Below, piece by piece: positions 381 to 16,114 of a stretch of 56,618 bases of DNA. The stretch's first letter is position 1. Each line of letters opens with the position of its first letter. Both the position numbers and the translations under genes were made by a program. Origin of the DNA: a virus. The stretch lies in UHGV virus genome UHGV-2050067. One strand, 5' to 3'. Below the pieces are notes generated by a model. That model did no database searches. It saw only the letters and a program-made list of their open reading frames with translations, and was not told where the DNA came from.

Positions 381-1499
381 TTACAAAATGGAATATTCAG
401 GGTAATAAACAAAGCGCCCGATCTCCCCATGATCCTGGCTGTAAATAATCACCGCTGCCATACGACGTGACCGCCAGCCGCCATTAGTTGAGTAAGCGTC
501 TTTACCCGCTAACGTGCCGTGATACTCAACAACGCCTAACGATGATTCAATCAGCCGTTGATGATGCCAGTGCCCGCAATGAGCGTAAACCGCCGCAGAC
601 TTGCCGAAATCCTCCCGCCAGTCAGATACGCAAGCCGACAATAAATTTTCTGGCTTTTTGATAGTGTGCCCGTGGTGGTAAGCGAGGAATGTTTTGCCGT
701 ACTGCGTGTGGTGGACGATAGCAGGGGACACATCAACAGTTACGCGCGGTTCGTCTTCGTAAAAAGCTGCCAGCGCAGCACGTAGCCAGATCATTCCTGA
801 CTGGTCGTGATTGCCGGATAACACCTGGATTTCTACATCCTTATGATTTAACAACATCTTCCCGACCGCCCGCCGTACCGACCGGATCGCTACATAGACA
901 AGTTTTGCATAGCGACTATCTTGATCAAGAATGTGCCCGCTTGTTGGTGTAACAGGAACCATTCCATCAGAGTGAAGCAGGTCGCCACCGAGAAGCAAAA
1001 CGGCTTTTTCAGACATCGGCGCGGCGCCCACAGCGTAGTCAAAGAAGTCATTTAACACGCGCTCAGCGATCCCAGTGTCGTAGCTCTCGCCGCATTCTGC
1101 TTTGTGAGCAAGTGCCCCGATATGCAGATCGAATACCGGATAAAGGGCCAGGCTTTTTTGGAAATCAATTTCAGGCACTGGCACAGCCTCCGCGCGTGGT
1201 ATCTCATCCGTGAAAGCGTCGCGGGCCGCTTCCATTAGCTGTTCCATTTCGTCGCGGTCACGGGCTGTTTTAATCCAGCGCATGATCACATTGCCGTTTT
1301 TATCGACTAGCAATGACTCGCCATTGACGCCAAAACCAGGCGCGCGGCGTGTTGATAATAAACCACGTTTCGCAAGTTTTGCGCCCAGACGCTCGACGTT
1401 GCGTTTTGACATGCAATATTTTTCAGCGATCTGTTTATACGTTAAACCGTTGTTATATTCAGCGATCAATTGCTCATCGCTTATCTTTCTTTGTGACAT
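381..1499 (-). CDS. N-terminal HTH fused to calcineurin-like metallophosphoesterase (NinI-like phosphatase fold)
   Basis: 372-aa ORF; metallophosphoesterase motifs DLHIG, GGDLLHSDG, GNHD, HHGH, GHWH; HTH-like N-terminus; stop 19 nt before the helicase start. Confidence 0.65.
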   Translation of the reverse strand: MSQRKISDEQLIAEYNNGLTYKQIAEKYCMSKRNVERLGAKLAKRGLLSTRRAPGFGVNGESLLVDKNGNVIMRWIKTARDRDEMEQLMEAARDAFTDEIPRAEAVPVPEIDFQKSLALYPVFDLHIGALAHKAECGESYDTGIAERVLNDFFDYAVGAAPMSEKAVLLLGGDLLHSDGMVPVTPTSGHILDQDSRYAKLVYVAIRSVRRAVGKMLLNHKDVEIQVLSGNHDQSGMIWLRAALAAFYEDEPRVTVDVSPAIVHHTQYGKTFLAYHHGHTIKKPENLLSACVSDWREDFGKSAAVYAHCGHWHHQRLIESSLGVVEYHGTLAGKDAYSTNGGWRSRRMAAVIIYSQDHGEIGRFVYYPEYSIL

Positions 1500-1533
1500 A
1501 GTGTCATTTCCTCACGAATAACAAATTGTATAC

Positions 1534-2202
1534 TTAGTTACAAGTTAAAAGCTCAGTGATCCATACTTGTCCTTTAGCAGTGAATACAGCCTGCTCATAT
1601 CCATCGTGAGTTACCCTCATTTCACCGTAGCCCTCATCAATAAACCACTGACTAAATACACGGCGGCGACAGCGAAGATCGTAAACACCAACAGCCGAAA
1701 GTTTTCTGTTTAATTTTACGGCTGACATTCCCAGCGGTTTAGCAACCTCTGAAGCCGTTCGGTGCATATCGTTTTTGACTATCGCGTCACATACAGCCGC
1801 TTTTGGCGCAAGTTCCTTATTAACCAGTGCAAGCCGTTCTTTTTCCTCAGCAAGATCGGCAGCAAGGCGCAACGCTTCGCTTAATGTTTGAGGAATTGCA
1901 GGGGCGTTTTGCTGTACCCGTTTTTCAAGTTCCTGCCAGCGGTCGATGATGCGAGCACGTAACTCAACGCTATAGCCAGATACAACCAGCAAAGAGTCAC
2001 GCTTAGTTAAAAGCCATTCCCTCTGTGTTTGATTGTTGTATCCTTTGTAAGTTACTGATTTGCTTGATTCCCCCAAATTTGGGGCAATGGCGTCAATGTC
2101 TCTCAATATGTGATCGTGCCGTTTACCAGTTAGCTTGGCGATCTCACGAGAAGACATTGTTAATACTTCGTTCGCCCCATTAAGCGCCATTAATTCAGAC
2201 AT
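1534..2202 (-). CDS. Rha-family phage regulatory protein / antirepressor
   Basis: 222-aa ORF; N-terminal SSREIAKLTGKRHDHILRDI resembles the Rha domain; C-terminal Ant/KilAC-like region. Confidence 0.65.
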   Translation of the reverse strand: MSELMALNGANEVLTMSSREIAKLTGKRHDHILRDIDAIAPNLGESSKSVTYKGYNNQTQREWLLTKRDSLLVVSGYSVELRARIIDRWQELEKRVQQNAPAIPQTLSEALRLAADLAEEKERLALVNKELAPKAAVCDAIVKNDMHRTASEVAKPLGMSAVKLNRKLSAVGVYDLRCRRRVFSQWFIDEGYGEMRVTHDGYEQAVFTAKGQVWITELLTCN

Positions 2203-2220
2203 TTTATTTTCTCCGGTTTA

Positions 2221-2236
2221 CTGAATATATATTCAC
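2221..2236 (-). promoter_or_regulatory. palindromic operator candidate (SOS-box-like) upstream of the antirepressor gene
   Basis: cTGAATATATATTCAc contains a perfect 14-bp palindrome about 20 nt upstream of the ant start codon; resembles the LexA box with symmetric substitutions. Confidence 0.35.
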
Positions 2237-2283
2237 AAAGAAAATTGACATCACCCGCCATAAATGACGTGGTTCTAATGCTT

Positions 2284-4101
2284 TCAATGGTGAAATAAAC
2301 CTTTAACCTTGCTAAAGAATCCGTCTTCTGGCTTTTTATCGAGCCGGTACAGTAATTCTTTTACTTTGTCTTGCAATGCCATTATCAGCTTACGATAACG
2401 TTCATGATTGCGCTGTTGACGCTGTTTCAGGTCGCCCATGTACCGTTTTTGTGCTGCCCGGCGTTGCATGTTGCGAGCAATCAGTTTGTTATATCTGTCT
2501 GATAGTTGGTTATAGCCAGATTGTAAGATGTTCACATTATTTTGCAGTTCCAGTTTATCATCCTCAAGTTCTGCCACTTTAAGCTGATAGCCCTTGATAA
2601 CTAGAGCCTTGTTGCTTGCCTCCTGTTGTTGCGCTTTGATTGTTTCCTTCGCTTCTGCCAGATCTGTACGAATGTCGTTGATTGTTTGTTTGTCTGCCGC
2701 AGCTTTCGCTTTTGCGTCGTCGTTATTTGCAGCGTTGACCTTTTGTCTTAGTTCGCAATTAGTTTTAACCAGATTGTCGCGCTCACTTTCTAGCTTCTGG
2801 CGTTTACCCTGTTCGTCACCAAATGCCTTATTCGCCTTGCTGTATTGGTGTTTCCAATAATCAACGCGGAGTTGGTAGCTGTCGCGATCTTCTCTCGCTA
2901 TGTTGAGCACTCCATGTAATTCCTTGATTTGTCCCTCCAGCGTTTTTACCTGGCATTTAAGATCTCCCACCTGTTTGCTATCTGTTTGCTGCGCAATAGC
3001 CGCGCTGATAGGGTTGTCTTTAAATTTGCGAAAAGCTACTGATAAATCAACCCTGTCCTTTTCCGCTCCTATCCGTGCCACGATCATTCCTGCGATCTCA
3101 AGCGGTGCATATCCTTTTTTGATCTGCATGTCACATTGTTCAGTGCAATAAATATAGCCAGGTAATTTATTCAAGCTTTCAATGCGGTGGCGTAATTCAT
3201 CCTCATTAATACCATACGCCGCAGCAATATCCATCAGATTGATTTCATCGGCGTCATTAACGCTAATATTATGACCGTGAAATTTGAATACTCGCGGTAA
3301 CTCATGTTCATGCGGTTCCGTGTTACTTTCTTGTTTCATTTCGTCACCCTTGTAATAACGCTGTTTTATGCGCTCCGCTTCTTCTGGTGAGATATAATCA
3401 GGGAAGTGGTTCATTTGCTTACCGTAGTATCTAATTTCGCCGTTGATGCGCTCTTTTATTGCGTCGTTAATATTATCGAAATAACCAAAGCCGTGATTTA
3501 TTGTATTAACTTTAATTGTTGCTTCCCATTTATTTTTCGCCTTATTCCATAGAACGCCCTTGATACCGCTATTTCCCCAAGGCTTACGTTTTATGCCTCT
3601 TTCGCCGCGTGATATTAATTTCAGGTTTTCAATTTTCGCGCATGAATTATCGCCGTTTTCTATTACATACCCATCAGGAATAGGGCCGTTAAACATTTCC
3701 CACACAACGCGATGCAGTTGATAATAGCGATCTTTTACACCGATTTGCAAACGTTCATAATCAGTGCCTTTTTTGCATTTAAACCCGCGAATTATATCGC
3801 CTGGTTTAATACGACATTTCCCACGCCCCCTAGTCACCTTACTAATCAGAAAACCATCAGGATGATAATCAAACAGTTCAGGCCAATTTTCCGCGCACTG
3901 GCTGCAATCAGCGTACTGAATATCGCCAGCTTCCACCGCTGTTATTTCCTTCCAATAGCCACCGGCCACCATGCGTACAAACTCGCTTTCTTTACCCCAA
4001 TGATTCCACGTTTGATATTTACGCTTCCGCATAAACACCATTCCTTCATCAATTTTTGCAAACAATTTACTTCCTCTTATCGATATAAAATATCTAGACA
4101 T
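2284..4101 (-). CDS. HNH_3-like/AP2-domain homing-endonuclease-like protein with long C-terminal coiled coil
   Basis: 605-aa ORF; HRVVWEMFNGPIPDGYVIENGDNSCAKIENLKL matches the HNH_3 pattern but lacks the catalytic His-Asp; GIKGVLWNKAKNKWEATI is AP2-like; C-terminal ~300 aa heptad-rich. Confidence 0.55.
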   Translation of the reverse strand: MSRYFISIRGSKLFAKIDEGMVFMRKRKYQTWNHWGKESEFVRMVAGGYWKEITAVEAGDIQYADCSQCAENWPELFDYHPDGFLISKVTRGRGKCRIKPGDIIRGFKCKKGTDYERLQIGVKDRYYQLHRVVWEMFNGPIPDGYVIENGDNSCAKIENLKLISRGERGIKRKPWGNSGIKGVLWNKAKNKWEATIKVNTINHGFGYFDNINDAIKERINGEIRYYGKQMNHFPDYISPEEAERIKQRYYKGDEMKQESNTEPHEHELPRVFKFHGHNISVNDADEINLMDIAAAYGINEDELRHRIESLNKLPGYIYCTEQCDMQIKKGYAPLEIAGMIVARIGAEKDRVDLSVAFRKFKDNPISAAIAQQTDSKQVGDLKCQVKTLEGQIKELHGVLNIAREDRDSYQLRVDYWKHQYSKANKAFGDEQGKRQKLESERDNLVKTNCELRQKVNAANNDDAKAKAAADKQTINDIRTDLAEAKETIKAQQQEASNKALVIKGYQLKVAELEDDKLELQNNVNILQSGYNQLSDRYNKLIARNMQRRAAQKRYMGDLKQRQQRNHERYRKLIMALQDKVKELLYRLDKKPEDGFFSKVKGLFHH

Positions 4102-4267
4102 TATTAATACCTCGCATTTAGTAATTTGCTTTTACATAGATACAATCAATAAAACGCGCTACAACGCAAAATTCCACCGCGACACCCGTTTGCACAGGTT
4201 GCAGTGTCTTATTGCGCCAGAGGCGCTCTCATATGGCTAATTTTTGATTTACAGACTGGTAGGTTGG

Positions 4268-4369
4268 TTATGGATTGACTAGAAGGAACAAACCGCCGAA
4301 CAAGGCGACGTTAACAGCGATTGCCGCAGCGATGGCAAAAGCCAGGGCGAAAACGTGTTTACCGTCCAT
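4268..4369 (-). CDS. mini-ORF, 33-aa hydrophobic single-pass peptide
   Basis: MDGKHVFALAFAIAAAIAVNVALFGGLFLLVNP with SD gagagg 7 nt upstream; in the 400-bp gap between the organizer and HNH genes; absent from the track (<60 aa). Confidence 0.3.
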   Translation of the reverse strand: MDGKHVFALAFAIAAAIAVNVALFGGLFLLVNP

Positions 4370-4502
4370 TTTAAAATCCTCTCTGTAACGCTCTATAACG
4401 AGCTAATCGCAAAAAGGTAAGCAAGTATAGCACCACATGCGATTTATCTCGCTGGCGAGCTTGTTTTGCGGGTTATTTTGGGTTTTTGTGGATCGTGGTT
4501 AG

Positions 4503-5555
4503 TCAAATAGCGCCAGCGCGTGTATCGCGTAGCGTTTTTGGTTTAAGCAGGAAATCAAGTGTCGCTGTGAAGCCATCGCCGAAGTAAAAGTCTGAAGCCT
4601 TGCTCTTGAATGCTTCAAAGTAGGCGATAAAGCCGTTAATGCTTTTGTCTTTCAGGTAGTCAGTGAACGCATAGATCTTGCGTTCAAGATCCCGGTCCAG
4701 TTCAGCAGGTGGCAACAGGCCATCAAACGTGATGTTAAACTCATTTACCACATCGGCAGCGTTTACAGTAACTGACAGATTGCGCCATTGTTCAGCATCA
4801 GCAAGATACCCATCGAATTTAGTTACCCGGCAAATGTTAACAGGCTTAGGCACTCCACCACGGCTACGCCATTGCGTCAAAGCCCACTCAATCACTAATG
4901 TGATCTCATCCTCCGTATACGCTTTACGTGTTTTTGTTTCTGTCAGTAGTTCGATGAATGGCTTCGCATCACGACATTTGCATCCTGCCTTGTCGTTGTA
5001 GAAGGCCAGGCAACGCAACGCCGCTTCGTTTACGCCATCATGATTGACCATTTTTTGTTCATTTTCGACAATACACGAAGTGTATATATCTTTTTCTCTT
5101 TCTTCTTCTACTTCTAATTCTAATTCATGACCCTTTCCTGACCCGGTCATGACCCTATCATGACCTTTTTGTGTTGGATTGATTAACTTTTCTAATTTTA
5201 ATTGCTCCTTAGCTGTGTTTATGGCGGCCCTGTACGCGCTTTTAGAAGTCATTGATTGGTCAAGCCTTTTCAATAACTTTAAACAAGTTATGTGGCCTTG
5301 AGAACATTCAAACAAACCAATTTCGATGAAGTATTTCATCATTTCTTCTATACGTTTTTCAGTCGATCCGACGTTTCGCGCAATGATTCTCGCGTCATGT
5401 CGTAGGTCAAAAGTCAGATTGTGCTGATCTACGTCATAAGTTATTAGTTCGAGGCAATACCAATAAAGCCCGTACCCTTCCAGGCCATAATCAAGCAAGA
5501 CGTTTTGAAGTTTTTCATCGCGGTTCGCATCGCTATCATGCTTAAACCACTTCAT
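4503..5555 (-). CDS. replication initiation / replisome organizer protein (O-like role)
   Basis: 350-aa ORF; N-terminus MKWFKHDSDANRDEKLQNVLLDYGLEGYGLYWYCLELI resembles the phage replisome-organizer N-terminal domain; iterons and an AT-rich tract lie inside the gene. Confidence 0.6.
   Translation of the reverse strand: MKWFKHDSDANRDEKLQNVLLDYGLEGYGLYWYCLELITYDVDQHNLTFDLRHDARIIARNVGSTEKRIEEMMKYFIEIGLFECSQGHITCLKLLKRLDQSMTSKSAYRAAINTAKEQLKLEKLINPTQKGHDRVMTGSGKGHELELEVEEEREKDIYTSCIVENEQKMVNHDGVNEAALRCLAFYNDKAGCKCRDAKPFIELLTETKTRKAYTEDEITLVIEWALTQWRSRGGVPKPVNICRVTKFDGYLADAEQWRNLSVTVNAADVVNEFNITFDGLLPPAELDRDLERKIYAFTDYLKDKSINGFIAYFEAFKSKASDFYFGDGFTATLDFLLKPKTLRDTRAGAI
5080..5166. other. candidate origin of replication (AT-rich tract plus three TCATGACC iterons) inside the organizer gene
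   Basis: tcatgaccc at 5125 and 5147, tcatgacct at 5158, preceded by tgtatatatctttttctctttcttcttctacttctaattctaattc; analogous to lambda ori inside O. Confidence 0.4.
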
Positions 5556-5558
5556 AGA

Positions 5559-5891
5559 TCATTCCTCCGGTAACATCACTACATAGACATCACTGAACGC
5601 ATCAAGACGACAAACAAACCCTTTATGCATTAACGCGGCGAAGGCATCATGTACCGTATGAACAGGAAGTTCACACATTTTTGCGATTTCTTGTCGTGAT
5701 ACCATGACGTGACGGCGGTTATCTGCCTTTTCAGCCAGAGCCATTAAGACCAGTTTTTGAATCAGGCTGTTAAGTTTTACTTTCCATACTTCGCTAATCA
5801 TGTTCATGCTCATTGTATTTTCTCCTATGGTTAAAATGAACGCGCGGGCGGGCATCCCATTAGCATTAGATAGCAGTGACTGACCGCTCAA
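5559..5891 (-). CDS. winged-helix HTH protein, first gene of the leftward early operon
   Basis: 110-aa ORF; LIQKLVLMALAEKADNRRHVMVSRQEIAKMCELPVHTVHDAFAALMHKGFV resembles HTH_36 domains of replication proteins; divergent from the CI-like gene. Confidence 0.5.
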   Translation of the reverse strand: MSGQSLLSNANGMPARAFILTIGENTMSMNMISEVWKVKLNSLIQKLVLMALAEKADNRRHVMVSRQEIAKMCELPVHTVHDAFAALMHKGFVCRLDAFSDVYVVMLPEE

Positions 5892-5921
5892 CAGATCCCG
5901 CCGTTGCGTGATATTTGTTTT

Positions 5922-5955
5922 TCGCTTCGCAGCGACACCGGATTTTTAAAGAGCT
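5922..5955 (-). promoter_or_regulatory. candidate nut-like site (boxA-like GCTCTTTAAAAA plus short hairpin) on the minus-strand transcript
   Basis: Minus strand reads GCTCTTTAAAAA, then 8 nt, then tcgc-tgcgaa-gcga stem-loop, upstream of the 5891 start. Confidence 0.3.
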
Positions 5956-5994
5956 TAAGTGGTTGGCCTTTTGTGCTTTCCTTTATCTTTTTTC

Positions 5995-6058
5995 TTGCAT
6001 CATTGCAACTATGGCCTTACCTTGTTTGCAAGTTTACAGAATGGCGTTGACAGGTCAA
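5995..6058. promoter_or_regulatory. immunity switch region: three palindromic operator candidates spaced about 26 bp apart
   Basis: TTGCAtcatTGCAA (5995-6008), cTTGtttgCAAg (6021-6032), TTGACaggTCAA (6047-6058) between divergent early and repressor genes. Confidence 0.45.
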
Positions 6059-6117
6059 GGCTTTAAAAATACGTTTTGTGACTTGTATCAAACTTTTTTA
6101 GGTTATAGGGTAGCGAC

Positions 6118-6765
6118 ATGAAAACAAAATGGTATGACTTAGCAAAACAACTCATGCGGGCGCAGGGCATGAGCCAGGATTCATTGGCTGATCTCATGGG
6201 GATAACCAAAGGTGGCCTTTCGCACTGGCTGAACGGTCGCCGTGAGCCGAATCTTGAAGATATTGCGCGTATCATGCGGGCGCTTGGGCGTCGGCAATTC
6301 ACTGTTACTCATGACGGAATGGTCATTGATGATTCTGTTTCTAACACGTTGCCGGGAGCGCCACCGCGTGATTTAGGCAGTTACCCGGTTGTTGACTGGA
6401 AGGATGTAGCAAACAATATGGAAGGCACACACCGATCAACATTGCCACACGTTGCTACTAGCGTTATTTGTTCGGATGATAGTTATTGGCTGGTTGCTAA
6501 AGGTGAATCAATGAACGCACCGCAAGGGTTGAGCATCCCGGCGGGGACTATGATACTTGTTGACCCGCACGCGCCAGCTATTGACGGAAAACTTGTTATA
6601 GCACAACTGGAGGAAGGGCAGATACCTACGTTTAAACAGTTGATTATTGATGGAGGCCGAAAACTTTTGCGTTCACTAAATCCGTTGTATCCGCCGATCC
6701 CTATGAATCCAGAGTCAAAAATCATTGGCGTGGTTGTTGACGCGAAGATCGTAAACCTGCCATAA
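6118..6765 (+). CDS. CI-like phage repressor (HTH_XRE plus S24 LexA-like peptidase domain)
   Basis: 215-aa ORF; N-terminal HTH (QDSLADLMGITKGGLSHWLNGRREP); C-terminal S24 motifs (VAKGESMNAPQ Ser, IDGKLVIAQL Lys). Confidence 0.85.
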   Translation: MKTKWYDLAKQLMRAQGMSQDSLADLMGITKGGLSHWLNGRREPNLEDIARIMRALGRRQFTVTHDGMVIDDSVSNTLPGAPPRDLGSYPVVDWKDVANNMEGTHRSTLPHVATSVICSDDSYWLVAKGESMNAPQGLSIPAGTMILVDPHAPAIDGKLVIAQLEEGQIPTFKQLIIDGGRKLLRSLNPLYPPIPMNPESKIIGVVVDAKIVNLP

Positions 6766-7055: not shown

Positions 7056-7346
7056 ATGAGCGTTACAATCATGTATGGCAAATGTGACAGTAAACTGAAT
7101 GCCAGGGAACGCAGAAAAATAAAAAGAGAAAACGAAAGAAAATCATCACCTGCAATTAATAAAACAGACAATGTGGATAAAGCTATTCGATTTGCAAACG
7201 AGGAAAGGTGCAAACCAAATAGCATTAAAGAACGTCGCAAAGGATCAGTAAAATGGTATATGGAAAATGAAAGCGGCAGCTACTACCACGCAACGCAACC
7301 ACGCCATTTAGGGGAAAAACCCCTGGATAAAGTCCGCTATCATTAA
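7056..7346 (+). CDS. N-like transcription antiterminator candidate (arginine-rich motif)
   Basis: 96-aa basic ORF with N-terminal NARERRKIKRENERK arginine-rich motif; first gene after the promoter and nut-like site. Confidence 0.4.
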   Translation: MSVTIMYGKCDSKLNARERRKIKRENERKSSPAINKTDNVDKAIRFANEERCKPNSIKERRKGSVKWYMENESGSYYHATQPRHLGEKPLDKVRYH

Positions 7347-7376: not shown

Positions 7377-7496
7377 ATGGTTATTCAGGCGCTCCAATTC
7401 AAACTAGCAGTAGCGGAAATGCTTCACGATGCCGAAATGTGGAGCGCCGCGAATAAAGCCTTATGCATAGTGTTAACAGCGAAGGAGGCTAGTTAA
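7377..7496 (+). CDS. small ORF (39 aa), hypothetical
   Basis: ATG at 7377 preceded by SD cggaggtgacatt; stop overlaps the HNH start (taATGg). Confidence 0.3.
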   Translation: MVIQALQFKLAVAEMLHDAEMWSAANKALCIVLTAKEAS

Positions 7497-8026
7497 TGGC
7501 TTATTCAAAACATGGAATGACGCACACAAAACTTTATGAAGTTTTCAAAGGAATGAAAACGAGATGCAGGAAAAGCGATAAGAATCCAAAAAATAAACAC
7601 TATAAAGATAAAGGTATAGCCATATGTGATGAGTGGTTGAATGATTCATCAAGGTTTATCGAGTGGGCTTTAAATAACGGTTATCAGGAAGGGTTAGAAA
7701 TAGACAGGACTGATAACGATAAAGGTTACTCCCCGGATAATTGCCGATGGGTTACACATGCTGAAAACATGCGTAATACATGTAAAACCAGAATATTAAC
7801 AGTGAATGGGGAAACTAACACAATACATTATTTTTCTGAAAAATACAGTATAGGTGAGGACACCATACGTTCAAGATTACGTCGCGGCTGGAGTCATGAA
7901 GCCGCTGTACTTCTTCCTTTAAGAAAGGGGAAACGATGTGAAGAAAGATTTATACAAAAAATTGTGGCTAATTCAGCAGCAATTAAAAGCGCCAAAATCT
8001 CAACGCAACTCATACGGTGGTTATAA
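7496..8026 (+). CDS. HNH endonuclease
   Basis: 176-aa ORF; DRTDNDKGYSPDNCRWVTHAENMRNT is an HNH-type motif; strong SD gaaggagg; 3' end overlaps the erf start by about 89 nt. Confidence 0.65.
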   Translation: MAYSKHGMTHTKLYEVFKGMKTRCRKSDKNPKNKHYKDKGIAICDEWLNDSSRFIEWALNNGYQEGLEIDRTDNDKGYSPDNCRWVTHAENMRNTCKTRILTVNGETNTIHYFSEKYSIGEDTIRSRLRRGWSHEAAVLLPLRKGKRCEERFIQKIVANSAAIKSAKISTQLIRWL

Positions 8027-8590
8027 TTACAGATCAGCGGAGGACATATTAGAGGCTGTTAAACCTTTATTAGAAGGCATCACATTGACTATTAACGATG
8101 AAGTAGTGTTAATTGGCGATCGTTATTACATTAAGGCAACGGCAATATTGAGCGATGGCGAGGACGAAATAACAGTTACTGCTTTCGCTCGCGAGGAAAA
8201 AGAACAAAAAGGCATGTCGGCAGGGCAGTTAACTGGCGCGACATCAAGTTACGCGCGGAAATATGCCCTGAACGGCCTGTTCTGTATAGACGATGCGAAA
8301 GATTTAGATACTGACGCTTACGCTAAGCAGACAGGCCAACAGCCTCGCCAGCAGAAAAACCCACCAAAACAAAAAACTAATCAGAAACCACAGCAGCAGA
8401 AAGCGCCGCCAAATCCTGACGAGGTGTTAGCGCGTTTCTGTGATGCAGCAGCTAAAGCGCCGGACGAAAAGGCATTAAAAGAAATTTTTGCTAAATGCTG
8501 GAAGTTGTTGCCGGAGGGTTCTGAGCAGCGAGTGAAAGCGCAAGATTGTTACCAGATCAGGAAAAGTGAACTTAATGGGGAGATTGCTTA

Positions 8591-8591
<1 letters not shown>
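7938..8591 (+). CDS. erf: Erf-family single-strand annealing recombinase
   Basis: 217 aa, GTG start; NSYGGYNYRSAEDILEAVKPLLEG...LIGDRYYIKATA...GATSSYARKYALNGLFCIDDAKD closely parallels P22 Erf as recalled. Confidence 0.85.
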
Positions 8592-9013
<422 letters not shown>

Positions 9014-9028
9014 TTCAGTAGGTTAGCG

Positions 9029-9307
9029 ATGGGTGATTATTTAAAACCGCCACCGCCACCGCGAACAAAAGAGCAAGTTTTAAAAGAAGCCCGTGATCAT
9101 ATCGATCATGGGCTTTTTTTATGCGGAACGGCAGCGGAACGGATGGCAAAAAGATTTAGTGACCTGTACGCAAAACAAATATGGTTCGACAACTGGCAGG
9201 CAAGTTTTTACCCACTGCAAAGAAAACCGGATATGCATTGGCCTGAATATGTCGATCCACGTATGCGCAAATATCGCGGGCGTATGGGCCAGGTCATTAA
9301 CGATTAA
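9029..9307 (+). CDS. hypothetical protein (92 aa)
   Basis: ORF track; same-strand operon packing. Confidence 0.4.
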   Translation: MGDYLKPPPPPRTKEQVLKEARDHIDHGLFLCGTAAERMAKRFSDLYAKQIWFDNWQASFYPLQRKPDMHWPEYVDPRMRKYRGRMGQVIND

Positions 9308-9319
9308 TGAGGTGTTATC

Positions 9320-9544
9320 ATGATTGAAGAAAAAGAAGTAGATAAGGAAATTCCTGACGGTCGTGATGAGCTTATTTGTTTTGACGGCGGCCTGTATGAG
9401 TTCGAAACGTCTGCGGGGTGGCACGATAAATGGCCTAAGCCTACTCGCCAGGAATTAAGCGACCGTAAATCATTCGGCGAAGATGCCGAACGGCTGGCTA
9501 ATAACAAATGGCTTGATAAGTTAATTGCGGAGGGTGGCAAATGA
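9320..9544 (+). CDS. hypothetical protein (74 aa)
   Basis: ORF track; stop overlaps the next start (ATGA). Confidence 0.4.
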   Translation: MIEEKEVDKEIPDGRDELICFDGGLYEFETSAGWHDKWPKPTRQELSDRKSFGEDAERLANNKWLDKLIAEGGK

Positions 9545-9654
9545 GCTTTGCAAAAATTGCCGCATTGCTTGCGGCTTTATCTATCGCTGTGCTGTATCTC
9601 AGCGTATCTCTTTATATCACGGTAGCGATTATTAAACTCATTACTAACATGTGA
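9541..9654 (+). CDS. mini-ORF, 37-aa hydrophobic peptide
   Basis: MSFAKIAALLAALSIAVLYLSVSLYITVAIIKLITNM; start overlaps the upstream stop. Confidence 0.35.
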   Translation: MSFAKIAALLAALSIAVLYLSVSLYITVAIIKLITNM

Positions 9655-9662
9655 GGCCAATC

Positions 9663-9782
9663 ATGAAAGTCGGTAAGGATATTGTGACTGTAGCGTTTTG
9701 CATTATTTGCTTCCTGTTTGTGGTTGTTTTTTGTGGCGCATTTGCCGCGCTGGTTAGCCTTATTTTCAGGGGATTACTGTGA
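9663..9782 (+). CDS. mini-ORF, 39-aa hydrophobic peptide
   Basis: MKVGKDIVTVAFCIICFLFVVVFCGAFAALVSLIFRGLL; SD gtgagg upstream; stop overlaps the next start. Confidence 0.35.
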   Translation: MKVGKDIVTVAFCIICFLFVVVFCGAFAALVSLIFRGLL

Positions 9783-10054
9783 TGAAAACATGGGATGCAA
9801 AGGCTGGTGATCTTGTCGTGTTGCCTGAATATCGTGATGACCCTGGTCTGGTTGTACTGAATAAGATGTGTAACGATCTCGAACGTCCATTACTGGTTAA
9901 ATACCTGGACGGAACAATCATAGAGCCGCGTTTCTTTGATGATATTGAACTGAAGGCCCGCAATGTTCGCGTTAAGCCGTTCCGGGCTTATGTTGAAAAC
10001 CACTGGCGGAAATTGTTTGCCGGACTGAATGGGATGTTTGGCGTATGGCTATAA
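9779..10054 (+). CDS. hypothetical protein (91 aa)
   Basis: ORF track; overlapping start/stop with neighbours. Confidence 0.4.
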   Translation: MMKTWDAKAGDLVVLPEYRDDPGLVVLNKMCNDLERPLLVKYLDGTIIEPRFFDDIELKARNVRVKPFRAYVENHWRKLFAGLNGMFGVWL

Positions 10055-10236
10055 AATTAGTGAAAGTTAAAGACCTGAAAGGCGGCGAAAAGATCCGCAC
10101 ATGGTATGGCTATAAATTTATTGTCGCTGCCTTTTCTTTCGGGCCAGGGGGGCAAGTAACATTATTTGATGAAGAAGACGACGAGGTGGGTAAATGGCAT
10201 CTTGAACAATATGTTGAGGTGTTAAATGAAAATTAA
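10045..10236 (+). CDS. hypothetical protein (63 aa)
   Basis: ORF track; operon packing. Confidence 0.35.
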   Translation: MAIKLVKVKDLKGGEKIRTWYGYKFIVAAFSFGPGGQVTLFDEEDDEVGKWHLEQYVEVLNEN

Positions 10237-10558
10237 ATTACATAAGGCCTATGATAGCGAAACAAATAAGCTATCACTATTTATTGAGTTCGAACGCCGG
10301 ATAGTGTGTGTACCGTGGGCGCGTCGCTTTAATGATGCAGCTGGGCGGCGACAGTTCGCGTTAGACATGTTGTTGCGCGGTTGCGGCCTTATGCGCCCGC
10401 TATCTGATTTAAAACGGATGATGCCTGGATCGTTCGGTCAGATTGATGAAATAGAAATAGGCCAGGAAGAGCTAAAACGGGCGCGTGATTTATTCCTTTC
10501 AAGTGAAGGAAACCCGTTCAACCCAGAAACTGAAATGAAATGGCATCACCCACTATAA
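10226..10558 (+). CDS. hypothetical protein (110 aa)
   Basis: ORF track; operon packing. Confidence 0.4.
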   Translation: MKIKLHKAYDSETNKLSLFIEFERRIVCVPWARRFNDAAGRRQFALDMLLRGCGLMRPLSDLKRMMPGSFGQIDEIEIGQEELKRARDLFLSSEGNPFNPETEMKWHHPL

Positions 10559-10562
10559 AAGG

Positions 10563-11192
10563 ATGAACATCATGAACGACATCAAAACAGCTTATTCACT
10601 TGGCAGCAATGGCATGTTAATCACTCGCTACACTGAAGATGCAAGTTTTCATGAAGTGGAAACGAAGGATTATCACGAAGTATTAAAAGATATGGAAGCT
10701 GGCGCGTATGACGCTGATTTAAACCTGGCTATGCAGATTGTTGATATTATGATGGACGCGTCGATCCGCGATTATGTGTCTTTAAACGCTGAAGAAAAAA
10801 CTGCCGTAGCTCGTTATGTCTTCTGCCTTGCTTTCGTAAAACGCATGGAAGAAGAATTTGGACGAGTACCAGTGCCGGAAGAAATTGACCCACTGGCGTT
10901 CGGAAGTGCTGTTATTTTCCCGTTAGATGAAAATCATACGGGTAGCGTTGCGCTGTATTCTGTGCGCGGCGTAATGAAAAAAGTATTCGAGGCTAAAGCG
11001 TTACAGAAGTGTATTGATGAAGGGCACAAAGAGGAAGAAGTAAAGGCGATCATGCCATTATTTTACGGCGAAATGGTTGGCAATAATATGCGCGCAAATG
11101 ATTTAGGTGTACAGGCAGCTATAGCTGTGCTTAATGACGCGCGGAAAGACGCACAGCTAGTGCCTGAACCTGAAAAACGCGTACTTCATTAA
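10563..11192 (+). CDS. hypothetical protein (209 aa)
   Basis: ORF track; no motif recognised. Confidence 0.45.
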   Translation: MNIMNDIKTAYSLGSNGMLITRYTEDASFHEVETKDYHEVLKDMEAGAYDADLNLAMQIVDIMMDASIRDYVSLNAEEKTAVARYVFCLAFVKRMEEEFGRVPVPEEIDPLAFGSAVIFPLDENHTGSVALYSVRGVMKKVFEAKALQKCIDEGHKEEEVKAIMPLFYGEMVGNNMRANDLGVQAAIAVLNDARKDAQLVPEPEKRVLH

Positions 11193-11195
11193 CAT

Positions 11196-11211
11196 TGTGA
11201 TTGCGATCACA
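11196..11211. promoter_or_regulatory. perfect TGTGA-N6-TCACA palindrome (CRP-consensus-like) in an intergenic gap
   Basis: tgtgattgcgatcaca; further TGTGA half-sites at about 11231 and 11249; about 80 nt upstream of the 11292 ORF. Confidence 0.4.
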
Positions 11212-11291
11212 TAAATATACATTTTGTTTTGTGATCGCATGTCCGTTTTGTGAACTGAAATCAAAAGGTTTACGGCGCGGAGGAAAACAAG

Positions 11292-11510
11292 ATGGCCCGC
11301 GAATTAATGCTTTATTGCGTTGAGGGTGGCGTAGGCCATGATGCCTATGTCGCAGGGAAAAGCTATCCAGCCGATGAAGTGCTTTCTAATATGCACTTCC
11401 GGGAAAATGAAAGCCGGGTGTCTGTGTGGAAACGGTGCATTGATGGTATTGAAGTTGTAAGTATAGAACGGTATTTAGGCACGTTTGATTACGGTGTTAT
11501 TGAGGCTTAA
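11292..11510 (+). CDS. hypothetical protein (72 aa)
   Basis: ORF track. Confidence 0.4.
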   Translation: MARELMLYCVEGGVGHDAYVAGKSYPADEVLSNMHFRENESRVSVWKRCIDGIEVVSIERYLGTFDYGVIEA

Positions 11511-11608
11511 TTATGGACGATACATTGTTTTATATGTGCTGTTGCTGGGGTTTTATTGCCTTATGCCTGTTTATCAGGTGGTTTATTGAATACCATATGA
11601 GGTGAGGC

Positions 11609-11803
11609 ATGGAACAGGAAACTGATTATAGAATACCTGAAAACCTGAAGTTAGTCGGCATTGGTTTTGGTTGTCGTTTTGTATCTGACGCAAACGGGGC
11701 GATTTATTTAGTGCGCCTCATTGATGGTGTTCAGCATATAAGAAGGCTAGGACTTTACATCAAAGCATTCAGAAGAGGTTATTTAAAAGCTCATGAAGTT
11801 TAA
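11609..11803 (+). CDS. hypothetical protein (64 aa)
   Basis: ORF track. Confidence 0.35.
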   Translation: MEQETDYRIPENLKLVGIGFGCRFVSDANGAIYLVRLIDGVQHIRRLGLYIKAFRRGYLKAHEV

Positions 11804-11996
11804 ACACTATAAAGAATGGAAAATTCCAGAATCAGCAACAAAGGCAGCGCCAGGAAATTTTTCTGGCGTTTATTTTTATATGGATGGCAAATGGTATTTC
11901 GGCAGCAGGCCGGATCACTATTATCAGGAAATATGCAAGCCTCACGTATGGGATATTAAAGAGCGCGTGAAAGGCGGTGTGATTGAGGACGTTTAG
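11793..11996 (+). CDS. hypothetical protein (67 aa)
   Basis: ORF track. Confidence 0.35.
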   Translation: MKFKHYKEWKIPESATKAAPGNFSGVYFYMDGKWYFGSRPDHYYQEICKPHVWDIKERVKGGVIEDV

Positions 11997-11997
11997 A

Positions 11998-12225
11998 ATG
12001 ATGCGTGCACTTATTGACTTTATTATGGGCTGGCTATTTTGTTCTTTTTTTGTATTCTCATGTATAGCTACGGTTCTTATTGGAATTTTATGCGGTGTGT
12101 CTTTTGTTACATGGGAACTACCAGAAATGCCATCACCTGATGATGCGCTTTATATGTTAAGGATCATTATTGCTGTTAGTGTATTTGTTGGGTTCTTTTT
12201 CGCTGATTCTACTGATGTTTTATGA
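11998..12225 (+). CDS. small membrane protein (two predicted TM helices)
   Basis: MMRALIDFIMGWLFCSFFVFSCIATVLIGILCGVSFV...IIIAVSVFVGFFF; ATG at 11998 just after the upstream stop. Confidence 0.4.
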   Translation: MMRALIDFIMGWLFCSFFVFSCIATVLIGILCGVSFVTWELPEMPSPDDALYMLRIIIAVSVFVGFFFADSTDVL

Positions 12226-12460
12226 AATGGCTTTATTTAACCTGTCAGAGCCGCAATTTAACGCCGTAAAAACTGCCGCACGCGCGGCGCTTTCTGCCTG
12301 CAAAACGGAGGTAGAAAAGAACGGCTACAGCGATAAAGCCACGCGGCTGATACTCGACAAGCATTATCGCAAGGTCGCCCCGCTAATCAGTATTGAGCGT
12401 TTTGTGTGGTTGGTTGGGTATTTAAACAACCGTTGGGGGACTGAACAAGATTATTTTTAA
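12215..12460 (+). CDS. hypothetical protein (about 81 aa)
   Basis: In-frame ATG at 12215 within track ORF 12170-12460, overlapping the upstream stop. Confidence 0.35.
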   Translation: MFYEMALFNLSEPQFNAVKTAARAALSACKTEVEKNGYSDKATRLILDKHYRKVAPLISIERFVWLVGYLNNRWGTEQDYF

Positions 12461-12470
12461 GGGGGGCGTA

Positions 12471-13010
12471 ATGAAAAATGATTTTGGAGGCAGCAGCACA
12501 CCGAAGGAAATTAAAGACCTGTGGCAGACACCTAAACCAGTTTTTAGAGGAATGGACCGCGAGTTTGAATTTGTCGCTGACGTGGCGGCAAACAAGGCAA
12601 ACGCATTAATCCCGCGATATATAACCGAAGAAATGGACACGCTTACTTATCCGTGGGGAGCGGTGGCAATGCCTGGCGAATATGTATGGATGAATCCGCC
12701 ATACTCAAATCCGGGTCCATTTATTGATAAAGCGGCGCTCGAACATCAACGGAATCACATCGGTTGCGTGATGTTGTTGCCCGCTGACATTTCTGTTAGC
12801 TGGTTTATGAACGGCGTGGAGACTGCAAACGAATGCCGATTAATCACGCGCGGGCGGCTGGCGTTTATCAATGCTGCAACAGGTAAACCAGCAAGTGGAA
12901 ACAATAAAGGGAGCTTGTTCTTGATCTGGCATCCACGATGCAGACATGAATGTATTTTCACGCAGATAACACGTAAAGAGCTATATGCAAGAGGTGCAGA
13001 AAATGAATAA
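12471..13010 (+). CDS. DNA N6-adenine methyltransferase (phage Dam-like)
   Basis: 179 aa; NPPY catalytic motif (VWMNPPYSNPGPF). Confidence 0.7.
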   Translation: MKNDFGGSSTPKEIKDLWQTPKPVFRGMDREFEFVADVAANKANALIPRYITEEMDTLTYPWGAVAMPGEYVWMNPPYSNPGPFIDKAALEHQRNHIGCVMLLPADISVSWFMNGVETANECRLITRGRLAFINAATGKPASGNNKGSLFLIWHPRCRHECIFTQITRKELYARGAENE

Positions 13011-13494
13011 AGCGGCTGAATTGCTGAGACTTGCGGCTGAAACTATCGAGGCAAGAGGAGAACAAAACGGATACGATCGAAAAGAAGAAAAATCAGCGCC
13101 AAAAATAGCCACTATTTACAACGCTAAGAAGGGGACAAGTTTAACCCCGCTTGATGTATGGGATCTAATGATTTGCCTCAAGGAGGCGCGATTAGAGGCC
13201 ATTTTAAGCAATGGAAGCGATCCGCTCGACACTCTCATAGACCTTATTGCTTACAACGCGCTAAAAGCGGAGCAAATATTAGCGGAGCGGGAGGAAGAGC
13301 AAAAGAAAAAACAGGGTGATTTTGATATGTCGTTAAATTGCCGCTGTAAGAAAACCTCAATACCAGGCGACCTAATCGCTAGTGGTGAAGTAATAATGAA
13401 TGGTAGCTTCCAGCTTGGTAACGGCTGGCGGTTTAATAAAGAGGCTTTATTGTATACACCGAAGGATCATAAAAATGGAAAGGGTGACGATTGA
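13003..13494 (+). CDS. hypothetical protein (163 aa)
   Basis: ATG at 13003 with SD gaggtg; overlaps the Dam stop; no motif recognised. Confidence 0.45.
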   Translation: MNKAAELLRLAAETIEARGEQNGYDRKEEKSAPKIATIYNAKKGTSLTPLDVWDLMICLKEARLEAILSNGSDPLDTLIDLIAYNALKAEQILAEREEEQKKKQGDFDMSLNCRCKKTSIPGDLIASGEVIMNGSFQLGNGWRFNKEALLYTPKDHKNGKGDD

Positions 13495-13978
13495 CAGGTT
13501 ATTAGCCTGCGTTTATGTCGCCGTTTTTGTGATCATCAACCTTATTGTTAACCACTGCGGCCCGTGGGTAATTCCGATCACCACGGTAGCCGCCGTGTGT
13601 GTCAATATGATGATCCGCGACTTTCTGTTATATGACGGCGGTCTGAAATGGTCGGCTACAACATGCGCCGCCGCTGGCGCAATCACGGTGCTGATAAATT
13701 ACGACGCAGGAATGGTGGCGATCGCGTCATTCGTTGCGGTTGTTTCCGGTGCGCTTATTTCTGGCGGCGTTTACCGGGTTTTACCTGGTGATTTCGATTC
13801 GAAACGCTGGCCTGCAAATATAGCGTCCGCCATCGGCGATGCGTTAATTTTTCCTACGCTATCGTTTATGGCATTTATGCCGGAAATATCAGCTATGCAA
13901 TTCATCTCAAAAATGGCAGCGGTAACGGTGATCACCATCATTATGCGCCGCTATTTCACGTTTGAGGGTAGAAAATGA
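13475..13978 (+). CDS. multi-pass membrane protein, YhhQ/VUT-family-like (queuosine-precursor transporter family)
   Basis: ATG at 13475; hydrophobic throughout; DSKRWPANIASAIGDALIFPTLSFMAF resembles the YhhQ motif SRRWWLAPTASTLFGNVSDTLAFFFIAF as recalled. Confidence 0.45.
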   Translation: MERVTIDRLLACVYVAVFVIINLIVNHCGPWVIPITTVAAVCVNMMIRDFLLYDGGLKWSATTCAAAGAITVLINYDAGMVAIASFVAVVSGALISGGVYRVLPGDFDSKRWPANIASAIGDALIFPTLSFMAFMPEISAMQFISKMAAVTVITIIMRRYFTFEGRK

Positions 13979-14733
13979 GCAGGGCTAAACATTGGTTAAA
14001 TAATTGGCTTAGAAGTTGGGTGGTGTGGTCGCTGTACGACGGCAGCGGGTACGCCGTTAAAGATTGGGCGGAAGCTGGATATAAGTGCTATTGCTTCAAC
14101 TATGACGGCGCAAATCACGGAGATTATGAAGGCGTTAAAATCATTCATCCAAATATTGAATACGTTAACATCTGGATTGATAGCCATTTCCTGGGAATGT
14201 TCTCCCCTGAATTGTCTGTTTATCCAGGGCCTGACATTATCCTGGGCTTTCCTCCATGCGACGATCTCGCTGTGTCAGGCGCTCGCTGGTTCGTTGATAA
14301 ATACAGGAAAGATCCTTGTTTTCAGAATAGGGCGGCAAGAAACGCAATGTTGGTTGAATCTCTGGCTAACATGTATAACGTGCCGTGGATGGTGGAGAAT
14401 CCTGTTGGTGTGCTGTCAACGCTATGGCGTAAACCGGATTTTATCTTCAATCCTTGCGCTTACGGTGGCTACCTGCCGGAAGATGACAAGCATCCTGCTT
14501 TCCCTGATGTTTACCCACCGCGCGACGCGTACACGAAGAAAACTTGCATATGGTGCGGCAACGGATTCAGGCAGCCGCTTTTTAGACCTGTAGATCTTAA
14601 CTCTGGTGATAACCCTGGGTGGGCGAAAACCGGAGGCAGGACGAAACGAACAAAGATGATCCGCTCACTAACACCGCGTGGCTTTGCCCGTGCTGTATTC
14701 CTGGCTAACCATGACCGCGTTTTACCGGACTGA
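13975..14733 (+). CDS. DNA cytosine-5 methyltransferase (short, orphan-type)
   Basis: 252 aa; LYDGSGY (motif I-like), GFPPCDDLAVSG (PC motif), MVENPVG (ENV motif). Confidence 0.6.
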   Translation: MSRAKHWLNNWLRSWVVWSLYDGSGYAVKDWAEAGYKCYCFNYDGANHGDYEGVKIIHPNIEYVNIWIDSHFLGMFSPELSVYPGPDIILGFPPCDDLAVSGARWFVDKYRKDPCFQNRAARNAMLVESLANMYNVPWMVENPVGVLSTLWRKPDFIFNPCAYGGYLPEDDKHPAFPDVYPPRDAYTKKTCIWCGNGFRQPLFRPVDLNSGDNPGWAKTGGRTKRTKMIRSLTPRGFARAVFLANHDRVLPD

Positions 14734-14892
14734 AGTTTACAAAATGGCGTCATTGCGTGATATGGATCACATAATGGCGCTTTTCGCCTTGTTCTGGTGT
14801 ATCCATTTTGTATACTTCAAGCAAACAAAATGCTCTTTAAAAATCCGGCAGCGCTGAAATGCGTAGAAATCACCTGAAAAGGAGAGAGCATT

Positions 14893-15069
14893 ATGACTTT
14901 TGATAATTACCAATGGCATGACGACTATGAACGAGAAAGCGTCATGCGTGCAATGTGCAATGTATGCAGCACGAAGAAAGGAGGCTGTAACGAGTGCAAC
15001 GAATGCTTAGAACATTGGCTAAAGGCCGGACACGCCGAAAGGCTGAACGAAACAGAGAATCAAAAATAA
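14893..15069 (+). CDS. small Cys-rich (zinc-ribbon-like) protein, 58 aa
   Basis: Strong SD aaaaggagagag 6 nt upstream of ATG 14893; MTFDNYQWHDDYERESVMRAMCNVCSTKKGGCNECNECLEHWLKAGHAERLNETENQK. Confidence 0.45.
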   Translation: MTFDNYQWHDDYERESVMRAMCNVCSTKKGGCNECNECLEHWLKAGHAERLNETENQK

Positions 15070-15083
15070 TCGGGGTGGTTTTT

Positions 15084-15689
15084 ATGCAGAACCCTAAAAA
15101 ACCTATAAGACGCCGTTGCAAATGCTGCGGCGTTTTTTTTGAGCCTAAATATCACAATCAAACGTGGTGCAGCGATGAATGTCTGGAAGAACTGAAGTTT
15201 GATCAGCTATGCCGCGATCGTGAAAAGGCTATGAAGGCTATGGAGCGGAAGAAACGCCGTGATAGCCAGCGGGAAGAACGCAACCGGAAACGGAAACAGT
15301 TAAATCCGCGTAGCTACTGGATTAAACAGGCACAAAACGTTTTTAACGCTTATATACGCGAGCGTGACGCGGGTCAGCCGTGTATATCTTGCGGGACTTA
15401 TTATTACGAACAATGCGGCGCTGATGCTGGACACTGGCGCACAGTAGCGGCAGCCGGACACCTTCGCTTTAACGAGGATAACGTAAACCTACAATGCCGA
15501 CATTGCAATCAGGTATTAGACGGCAATGTTGAGTTATACAGAATAAATTTAATAAAAAAAATAGGATTAGAAAGGGTGGAGGCATTAGAAAATAATAACG
15601 AAACTCACAAATGGACGATCGAAGAATGTAAGGAGATCATTAAAGTTTATCAGGCGAAATTAGACGCCTTAAGGAGAAAGGCGGCATGA
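15084..15689 (+). CDS. ninG: NinG/Rap-like recombination-associated protein
   Basis: Internal ATG at 15084 of track ORF 14994-15689; Cys-rich (CKCCG, CSDEC, CISCG, CRHCN) with basic region; directly followed by rusA. Confidence 0.6.
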   Translation: MQNPKKPIRRRCKCCGVFFEPKYHNQTWCSDECLEELKFDQLCRDREKAMKAMERKKRRDSQREERNRKRKQLNPRSYWIKQAQNVFNAYIRERDAGQPCISCGTYYYEQCGADAGHWRTVAAAGHLRFNEDNVNLQCRHCNQVLDGNVELYRINLIKKIGLERVEALENNNETHKWTIEECKEIIKVYQAKLDALRRKAA

Positions 15690-16114
15690 ATGAATATTCT
15701 TTTATCCTGCCTTACCCGCCATCATGTAACAGGTATTACCGCCACGCCAGAGGGGTTAACTATATAAGCAAGGAGGGGAAAAAATACAGAGAATGGGTGA
15801 GGGAAGTCATAAGGCGTTTTAATCTTGATATAAATCTAAAATGCAGGTTATCAATAACGGTTTATATTGCGCCGCCAGACAACAGGAGACGCGATATAGA
15901 TAATATAGGGAAAGCGTTATTTGACGCTATAACCTATTCCGGCTTTTGGGCCGATGACAGCCAGGTTGACGCAATGAAGTTTGTTCGTTGCCGGAAGGTA
16001 AAAGGCGGACTCTTATTTATCAAGGTGCGAGAACGCAACGACATGTTGCCGGATATTAATGAATACTTAACTGATATGTGGGGCGACAATGGAGTTAATA
16101 AACATTGTTGTTAA
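15686..16114 (+). CDS. rusA: RusA-family Holliday junction resolvase
   Basis: 142 aa; LPYPPSCNRYYRHARG...DNRRRDIDNIGKALFDAITYSGFWADDSQV matches RusA. Confidence 0.85.
   Translation: MNEYSFILPYPPSCNRYYRHARGVNYISKEGKKYREWVREVIRRFNLDINLKCRLSITVYIAPPDNRRRDIDNIGKALFDAITYSGFWADDSQVDAMKFVRCRKVKGGLLFIKVRERNDMLPDINEYLTDMWGDNGVNKHCC

Follow-up and report, generated by a model that had tools for sequence, protein, structure and literature searches.

Phased direct repeats, a winged-helix initiator and an adjacent A+T-rich unwinding element are found in iteron plasmids such as pSC101, R6K, RK2 and pPS10, which recruit the host helicase without a replicon-encoded loader. In phages of Gram-positive bacteria, such as SPP1 (oriL in gene 38) and the lactococcal phages Tuc2009 and r1t, the protein that binds the origin repeats is encoded by the very gene in which they lie, and a gene for a helicase loader or helicase comes after that of the initiator. 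In phage lambda, the O-some forms when the O protein binds to four iterons in the central part of gene O, and the DNA is unwound at the A+T tract next to them (PMC7466680). Here, we describe a probable origin of replication of similar layout in the UHGV virus genome UHGV-2050067, which was analyzed as one stretch of 56,618 nucleotides (nt) and is referred to as the window; all positions are window coordinates. The segment at 5071-5166 lies inside a minus-strand gene for a protein of 350 amino acids (aa), the predicted initiator, and we take it, with a probability of about 0.8, to be a theta-type replication origin embedded in the linker-coding part of this gene. Judged from sequence, an initiator gene that contains its own origin follows the classical lambda design, here combined with an unrelated DNA-binding domain; the comparisons presented below support a mode of action like that of the lambda origin and place the initiator outside the lambda O protein family.

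The initiator region is 89 to 93% identical to that of the phages MagusPhagus, mEp515, mEp021, mEp010, mEp013, mEp044 and mEp554, and related prophages were found with the same range of identity over the region in 35 of 5426 complete Escherichia coli genomes. The window phage is thus an mEp021-like (mEpimmI) temperate coliphage. The mEpimmI phages are Nus-dependent, non-lambdoid phages whose prevalence in human gut isolates was reported to equal that of lambdoid phages (PMC11893012). No origin, iteron, helicase or primase is mentioned for them in that study (PMC11893012). Neither this candidate origin nor the cassette introduced below is described in the literature that we searched, in which nothing about replication origins was found for Lin1244, DUF4373 and PF14297.

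The initial annotation of the window, made from the sequence alone, had counted three iterons in the initiator gene. These three repeats are real (TCATGACCC at 5125 and 5147 and TCATGACCT at 5158, + strand), but the count has to be raised to four, since a degenerate unit, TCCTGACCC, is present at 5136 and completes an array with an exact spacing of 11 bp. On the gene strand, the four units read AGGTCATGA, GGGTCATGA, GGGTCAGGA and GGGTCATGA, in this order, and the core of the repeat, TCATGA, is a palindromic hexamer. A cluster of at least three direct repeats in the same orientation, as in lambda-type origins, is therefore present. Tandem Repeats Finder reported the array at 5124-5169 (period, 11; 4.2 copies; score, 57) as the best of the window once periods divisible by three are set aside, and it detected no second phased repeat cluster in the window. 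The GGTCATGA octamer occurs four times in the 56.6-kb window, each time within 5125-5165. The 9-mer RGGTCAKGA occurred five times in the window, compared to 0.83 expected, a number that was reached in none of 100 shuffles; four of the five copies are in the array, all on one strand. The array is translated to KGHD, RVMT, GSGK and GHE. Since the 11-nt period puts the units in three reading frames, the repetition is a feature of the DNA and not a peptide repeat. In 29 unique close relatives, the three GGTCATGA cores were invariant and the spacers and the third unit varied; nucleotide diversity in the repeat region of these relatives was not clearly below that in the rest of the gene, and only the place where the variation falls is informative.

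Downstream of the array with respect to transcription, and abutting it, is a tract at 5083-5124 that the initial annotation had described as AT rich and pyrimidine rich. Indeed, the tract has a GC content of only 21% and consists of 81% purines on the gene strand and is, therefore, pyrimidine rich on the + strand. Its duplex stability over 40 nt was -42.4 kcal/mol, compared to a window mean of -55.2 kcal/mol (standard deviation [SD], 4.1), which makes it less stable by approximately 3 SD. At the level of sequence, an adjacent A+T-rich unwinding element on the promoter-distal side, as in lambda-type origins, is thus in place. In the window, the tract has a period of 6 nt (NNAGAA), and its length differs in steps of 6 nt among close relatives. 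DnaA boxes were not found near the segment, and with 3 boxes compared to 7 expected, the window as a whole is not enriched in them. The nearest one, a single perfect box (TTATCCACA), is at 7172-7180 on the - strand, approximately 2 kb from the candidate origin.

The only Pfam match of the 350-aa protein was Lin1244_N (PF14297, formerly DUF4373), which covers aa 3 to 87 with 43.1 bits (gathering threshold, 25); neither a lambda O-type N-terminal domain nor the WH1/WH2 domains of the Rep_3 (PF01051) initiators of iteron plasmids were matched in Pfam. Its relatives are annotated as DUF4373 or Lin1244. Whole or in parts, the protein matched PHROG families of replication initiation proteins, one of them O-like (phrog_345; E value, 1.7e-16), a label that is the functional annotation of a different cluster and does not mean homology to lambda O. 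In an AlphaFold2 model built on 66 sequences, the N-domain was predicted to contain a helix-turn-helix and a beta-hairpin wing (helices at aa 51 to 62 and 66 to 78, strands at aa 83 to 90). Structural matches were modest but consistent: Foldseek gave no significant match in the PDB (all E values, >0.1) and a single-sequence search against the PDB reached only an E value of 0.43, and a profile of 25 N-domains matched a Crp/Fnr winged helix-turn-helix with an E value of 0.04. In the model, residues 122 to 172 were predicted to be disordered, with a predicted local distance difference test (pLDDT) score below 50, and the C-domain was predicted to be helical. The repeats and the A+T tract together take up codons 130 to 158 and, thus, fall inside this linker, where the pLDDT was 27 to 35. 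As in lambda-type origins, the candidate origin is found in the linker-coding segment between the DNA-binding and the C-terminal domains.

Sister phages of the mEpimmI group provided a natural exchange of the N-terminal module. Eight mEpimmI initiators share the C-domain, and two N-modules alternate in front of it. Type A (the window, MagusPhagus and mEp515) has Lin1244_N followed by the array of four GGTCATGA units, and the arrays of the three phages are identical, except that the third unit of mEp515 is GGTCAAGA. Type B is found in mEp021 (gp13) and in mEp554, mEp010, mEp044 and mEp013 ("DNA replication protein O"), which share the phage group, the position of the gene and the C-domain with the window; 97 of the 109 invariant columns of the type A/type B alignment lie in aa 178 to 348. 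However, type-B initiators carry an HTH_36 (PF13730) domain instead of Lin1244_N, and hhalign detected no homology between the two kinds of N-domain. Instead of 11-bp units, they have four dyad-symmetric units of 20 bp, spaced by 22 to 23 bp, at the same position in the gene, and their sequences differ slightly from phage to phage (GGTTGCTCTCTGCCACTACC, GGTGTCTCTCTGACACTACC and GGTGACTCTGTGACACTACC). The type-B repeats, at 3730-3817 of the mEp021 locus (L001) and at equivalent positions in L004 to L007, are inside the "protein O" gene and are unannotated in the records.

Types A and B are alike in the A+T tract, in the small winged-helix gene upstream and in the 17-mer ATACACTTCGTGTATTG (5069-5085, gene strand), which contains a 6-3-6 palindrome. 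The 17-mer is read in different frames by the two types (IYTSCIV versus NTLRVLE), and its flanks are not homologous. Since 18 of the 22 unique origin segments of type A have it and four (L025, L027, L042 and L045) lack it, the palindrome is not universal and may be an accessory element.

The N-domain could also be followed beyond the mEpimmI phages. Scanned with the N-domain, viral contigs yielded 80 loci, and those with 60 to 75% N-domain identity encode proteins of 221 to 370 aa with different C-terminal parts; RTCATGAY units directly follow the N-domain and are themselves followed by a purine-rich A+T tract. On the gene strand of L044 to L087, TCATG occurred at 1.52 per 100 nt in the 170 nt after the N-domain and at 0.107 per 100 nt in the rest of the loci, a 14-fold difference, and the spacings were 11 nt (44 times), 21 to 22 nt (20 times) and 32 nt (5 times). 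The distant relatives comprise 37 distinct sequences, among them phages of Vibrio, Pseudoalteromonas and Pantoea and viral metagenome contigs. Anchored on the last unit, they gave the consensus TCATGAc-N4-TCATGAc-N4-aTCAGa-N5-gtCATGCAAGATaAGAttAGATtAGAtaAGAat (last part also given as gtCATGCAAGATaAGAttAGATtAGA), in which the third unit is degenerate (TCAG) exactly as in the window (GGTCAGGA). The DNA of the array was conserved at nearly 2 bits although the N-domains are only approximately 65% identical. In all 37 sequences, the tract has a strict period of 5 nt, with 6 to 8 copies of AGATW pentamers (AGATA/AGATT/AGAAT). A 5-nt period is incompatible with a peptide repeat and, together with the 11-nt period and the conservation of the array, argues for selection on the DNA itself. 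In L046 to L088, this periodic tract is located after the last repeat (about 36 nt). Absence of the iterons from relatives, which the initial annotation had held would count against an origin, was not what we found, as the array is kept in distant relatives that have the N-domain.

A search in the reverse direction led to the same association. The 20-mer CATGCAAGATAAGATTAGAT had 25 exact matches in 2.9 million viral contigs. For 24 of these, a Lin1244_N domain was encoded 36 to 78 nt upstream on the same strand; the remaining match was cut off by the end of the locus. Locus L080 (2501-3532) has an extra domain of approximately 95 aa between Lin1244_N and the repeats, and both the repeats and the A+T tract are kept after the insertion. 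The inserted domain resembles T5orf172 (PF10544), the domain precomputed for P0142 and P0160.

Where the N-domain has diverged, the repeats have diverged as well. With an N-domain identity of 75%, the mEpimmI-like loci L044 and L045, which have the C-domain of the window, carry five 11-bp units with CCATGG-type cores. Vibrio phage Athena1 (L091; 56%) has three 21-bp units, Vibrio phage 1.155.O (L090; 50%) has four TCCGGAG units at 11 bp, and Vibrio phage VBM1 (L093; 36%) has three ACATG units; in all of these, a purine-rich A+T tract follows. The repeats thus covary with the DNA-binding domain, both in the exchange of types A and B and in the cores TCATGA, CCATGG, TCCGGA and ACATG, which follow the divergence of the N-domain. 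One residue in the wing of the N-domain differs between these groups: it is T with TCATGA repeats (ITC) and R with CCATGG and TCCGGA repeats (VRC and IRC). Since the window-type C-domain and the small 84-aa winged-helix protein encoded upstream of the initiator were found only in L008 to L045, the repeats travel with the Lin1244_N domain.

The gene next to the initiator gene also fits an origin in the distant relatives. It encodes a DnaB-type helicase in five loci (L057, L060, L062, L066 and L087), a DnaC/IstB-like ATPase in L046 and L049, a lambda P homologue in L084 and in Pantoea phage PdC23 and a DUF6475 protein in L051 and L075. The place of the initiator in front of DnaB, DnaC-like and lambda P genes is the place occupied by lambda O.

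Taken together, the position in the linker, the exchange of N-domains and repeats, the distant relatives, the covariation of the cores and the downstream partners support the proposal of the initial annotation that a lambda-like origin lies within the 350-aa initiator gene. Like lambda, the window has the repeats for the initiator (binding is predicted here) and the A+T tract within the central part of the initiator gene, with four repeats first and the tract after them in the direction of transcription; an N-terminal DNA-binding domain is encoded on one side of the candidate origin and a C-terminal domain on the other, and the specificity of the repeats travels with the former. The gene is part of an early operon that is divergent from a cI-type repressor, and lambda P, DnaC-like or DnaB genes come next in relatives of the window. 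Unlike lambda, the window has Lin1244_N as DNA-binding domain, with no Pfam match to the lambda O-type domain, its units are contiguous, 11 bp long and built on a 6-bp palindromic core, with 44 bp in all, whereas lambda has iterons of roughly 19 bp over about 95 bp, the early open reading frames (ORFs) scanned include no recognizable gene for a P-like loader or a helicase, and an extra free-standing winged-helix gene is present upstream. From iteron plasmids, the window differs in having no Rep_3 domain and no nearby DnaA box and in the location of the origin inside a coding sequence; moreover, the N-domain is absent from the plasmids in PLSDB. The recruitment of the host helicase without a loader of its own, as in these plasmids, would be needed in the window as well.

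Four findings weigh against an origin at this site. First, the A+T tract ranks no higher than fifth among the least stable nonoverlapping 40-mers of the window, and composition alone would not single it out. Second, a DNA-binding protein that resembles an initiator N-domain, the 84-aa protein, is encoded just upstream. Third, among the early ORFs scanned (381-6765 and 7496-17226), no helicase, loader or primase was found that could be the partner in the recruitment step, and the C-domain had no family match in Pfam (even with E values up to 1) or NCBIfam. Fourth, the N-domain is carried by no plasmid in PLSDB, which would have offered a natural minimal replicon for comparison.

The second of these findings leads to a different assignment of roles, in which the segment is an origin but the 84-aa protein reads the repeats and the 350-aa protein is a mere adaptor. 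The 84-aa protein shares homology with the DNA-binding N-domain of type-B initiators (33% identity to aa 3 to 92 of the mEp021 protein; E value, 8e-14) and with the N termini of PHROG replication initiators (phrog_4617, "replication initiation protein", positions 1 to 90 of 223; E value, 1.7e-17), its gene ends 3 nt upstream of the initiator gene in the same operon, and it differs between type-A and type-B phages. However, the protein of the window is only 60% identical to that of MagusPhagus or mEp515, in which the repeats and Lin1244_N are identical to those of the window, and it was not detected in L046 to L087, which keep the TCATGA array. Moreover, its identity to the window copy is about equal in L045 (70%), which has CCATGG repeats, and in L039 and L041 (71%), which have kept GGTCATGA; the change in the repeats tracks the N-domain of the 350-aa protein. 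We therefore consider it improbable that the 84-aa protein is the reader of the repeats. It is highly variable (34 to 100% identity among phages of one immunity type), had no NCBIfam match, like the initiator, and reached an E value of only 0.14 with Rep_3; it may be a regulator or cofactor of replication.

An equally small chance is left for the repeats being initiator sites for autoregulation, or a transcription roadblock, in the initiator's own gene, with the true origin elsewhere. Iteron-binding initiators of iteron plasmids commonly autoregulate, and the window has several other A+T-rich segments, for example around 6830, 4069 and 15534. However, none of these has TCATGA repeats, the window is without another phased repeat cluster, and in the relatives TCATG is at background level outside the segment that follows the N-domain. 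The tight coupling of the repeats to a periodic A+T tract throughout the family is, furthermore, what an origin needs and not what an operator needs.

Even less probable is that the palindromic repeats, in their inverted arrangement, are an intrinsic terminator on the + strand or part of an antisense RNA like oop of lambda, with a hairpin of two of the repeats at 5145-5165 followed by TTTTTGTGTT (to 5175) and fed by weak promoter-like sites at 5044-5092. The + strand does have one terminator-like and two 9-of-12 promoter-like sites, and the stability of the single-strand fold is unusually high (z = -4.3), but promoter-like and terminator-like sites are near chance here (5 versus 3.2 and 5 versus 2.9), Rfam had no match at the segment, and the A-run upstream of the repeats that the T-tail of an antisense RNA needs was present in only 15 of 39 relatives. 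A terminator would also explain neither the 11-bp phasing of four units nor the covariation of the cores with the DNA-binding domain. Finally, although the N-modules are exchanged at this very segment, the tract varies by 6-nt steps and the linker is predicted to be disordered, a mere recombination junction or low-complexity acidic linker with no function in cis is very hard to reconcile with an 11-nt period read in three frames, a 5-nt tract period in 37 of 37 distant relatives and a DNA conservation of nearly 2 bits next to N-domains of only approximately 65% identity, all of which indicate selection on the DNA.

The features of the locus are listed in Table 1. The candidate promoter would drive the 84-aa gene and the initiator gene and would send transcription through the origin. 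The cumulative GC skew has its minimum at 6021; since this coincides with the divergent promoters and the skew tracks gene orientation, we rejected it as independent evidence for an origin. A sub-threshold Rfam match to the Legionella small RNA LPR69 at 5710-5795 (+ strand; 24.8 bits versus a gathering threshold of 40; E value, 0.011) is antisense to the 84-aa gene and probably due to chance. The initial annotation had also counted on a helicase gene in this neighborhood. This part did not stand: the product of the 605-aa gene downstream has an HNH domain (aa 127 to 167) and an SMC-like coiled coil instead. Its counterpart in mEp021 has 495 aa and is annotated as a zinc-ribbon protein, and the HNH part may be an insertion; the 605-aa protein and the SbcD-like exonuclease may form an SbcCD-like pair. 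In addition to the exonuclease, the remaining early ORFs scanned encode Ant/Rha, a second HNH protein, Erf, SSB, methyltransferases, NinG and Q. Far from this region, in-frame tandem repeats are found at 45669-45770 (42 nt, 2.4 copies) and 46183-46529 (108 nt, 3.2 copies), both inside an ORF of 1813 aa (43111-48552), presumably for a tail fibre or tip protein.

Table 1. Coordinates of the candidate origin, its repeat units and the neighboring genes in the window
Feature	Position	Strand	Remarks
SbcD-like exonuclease gene	381-1499	-	Follows the Ant/Rha gene
Ant/Rha gene	1534-2202		Between the 605-aa gene and the SbcD-like exonuclease gene
605-aa protein gene	2284-4101	-	HNH domain and SMC-like coiled coil
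Initiator gene, 350 aa	4503-5555	-	Lin1244_N winged-helix N-domain (~aa 1-120), disordered linker (aa 122-172), helical C-domain (aa 173-350)
Palindrome ATACAC-TTC-GTGTAT (gene strand)	5071-5085		At far end of A+T tract; hairpin in single-strand DNA fold
A+T-rich, purine-rich tract, 42 nt; candidate DNA-unwinding element	5083-5124	-	Codons 144-158; gene strand ATTAGAATTAGAAGTAGAAGAAGAAAGAGAAAAAGATATATA
Array of four contiguous 11-bp repeats (iterons), 44 bp	5123-5166	-	Codons 130-145 of the initiator gene
Unit 1	5166-5156	-	Gene strand AGGTCATGATA
Unit 2	5155-5145	-	Gene strand GGGTCATGACC
Unit 3, degenerate	5144-5134	-	Gene strand GGGTCAGGAAA
Unit 4	5133-5123	-	Gene strand GGGTCATGAAT
84-aa free-standing winged-helix protein gene, HTH_36 type	5559-5813	-	Same operon; upstream of the initiator gene, with a gap of 3 nt
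Candidate early promoter TTGACC-16 nt-TAAACT	6031-6058	-	Consensus scan only; divergent region beside the cI-like repressor gene (6118-6765)

If the segment is an origin of the lambda type, dimers of the N-domain would occupy the four palindromic cores on the same face of the helix and would give a compact nucleoprotein complex like the O-some of lambda. Distortion of the DNA by this complex, aided by transcription from the early promoter through the gene, would then melt the A+T tract, and the C-domain would bring in the replicative helicase. As the early ORFs scanned yielded neither a phage helicase nor a loader, this helicase would be that of the host, i.e., DnaB, with or without DnaC. In the distant relatives, the same cassette of N-domain and candidate origin is fused to other C-domains, and the gene that comes next codes for a phage DnaB, a DnaC-like loader or a lambda P homologue. 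With its periodic purine strand, the tract may be a single-strand element that is recognized by sequence, and not simply a passive region of unwinding. A more far-reaching proposal, which we put forward only tentatively, is that Lin1244_N, the 44-bp array and the periodic purine tract are a portable origin cassette of gamma-proteobacterial phages with interchangeable helicase-recruiting C-domains, that the tract, which consists of AGATW pentamers in the marine relatives and of NNAGAA hexamers in the window, is read as single strand by the initiator or the helicase, in a role like that of the DnaA-trios, and that the mEpimmI C-domain loads host DnaB without a phage loader.

For the mEpimmI phages, the segment supplies a concrete and testable origin, and with no phage helicase or loader found among the early ORFs scanned, how the host helicase is recruited becomes a defined question. 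Beyond this group, the natural specificity variants TCATGA, CCATGG, TCCGGA and ACATG are a ready system for the study of repeat recognition by winged-helix domains. The PF14297/DUF4373 proteins of Vibrio, Pseudoalteromonas and Pantoea phages are mostly annotated as hypothetical; proteins of this family now gain a proposed function, that of the origin-binding domain of an initiator, and a predicted DNA target.

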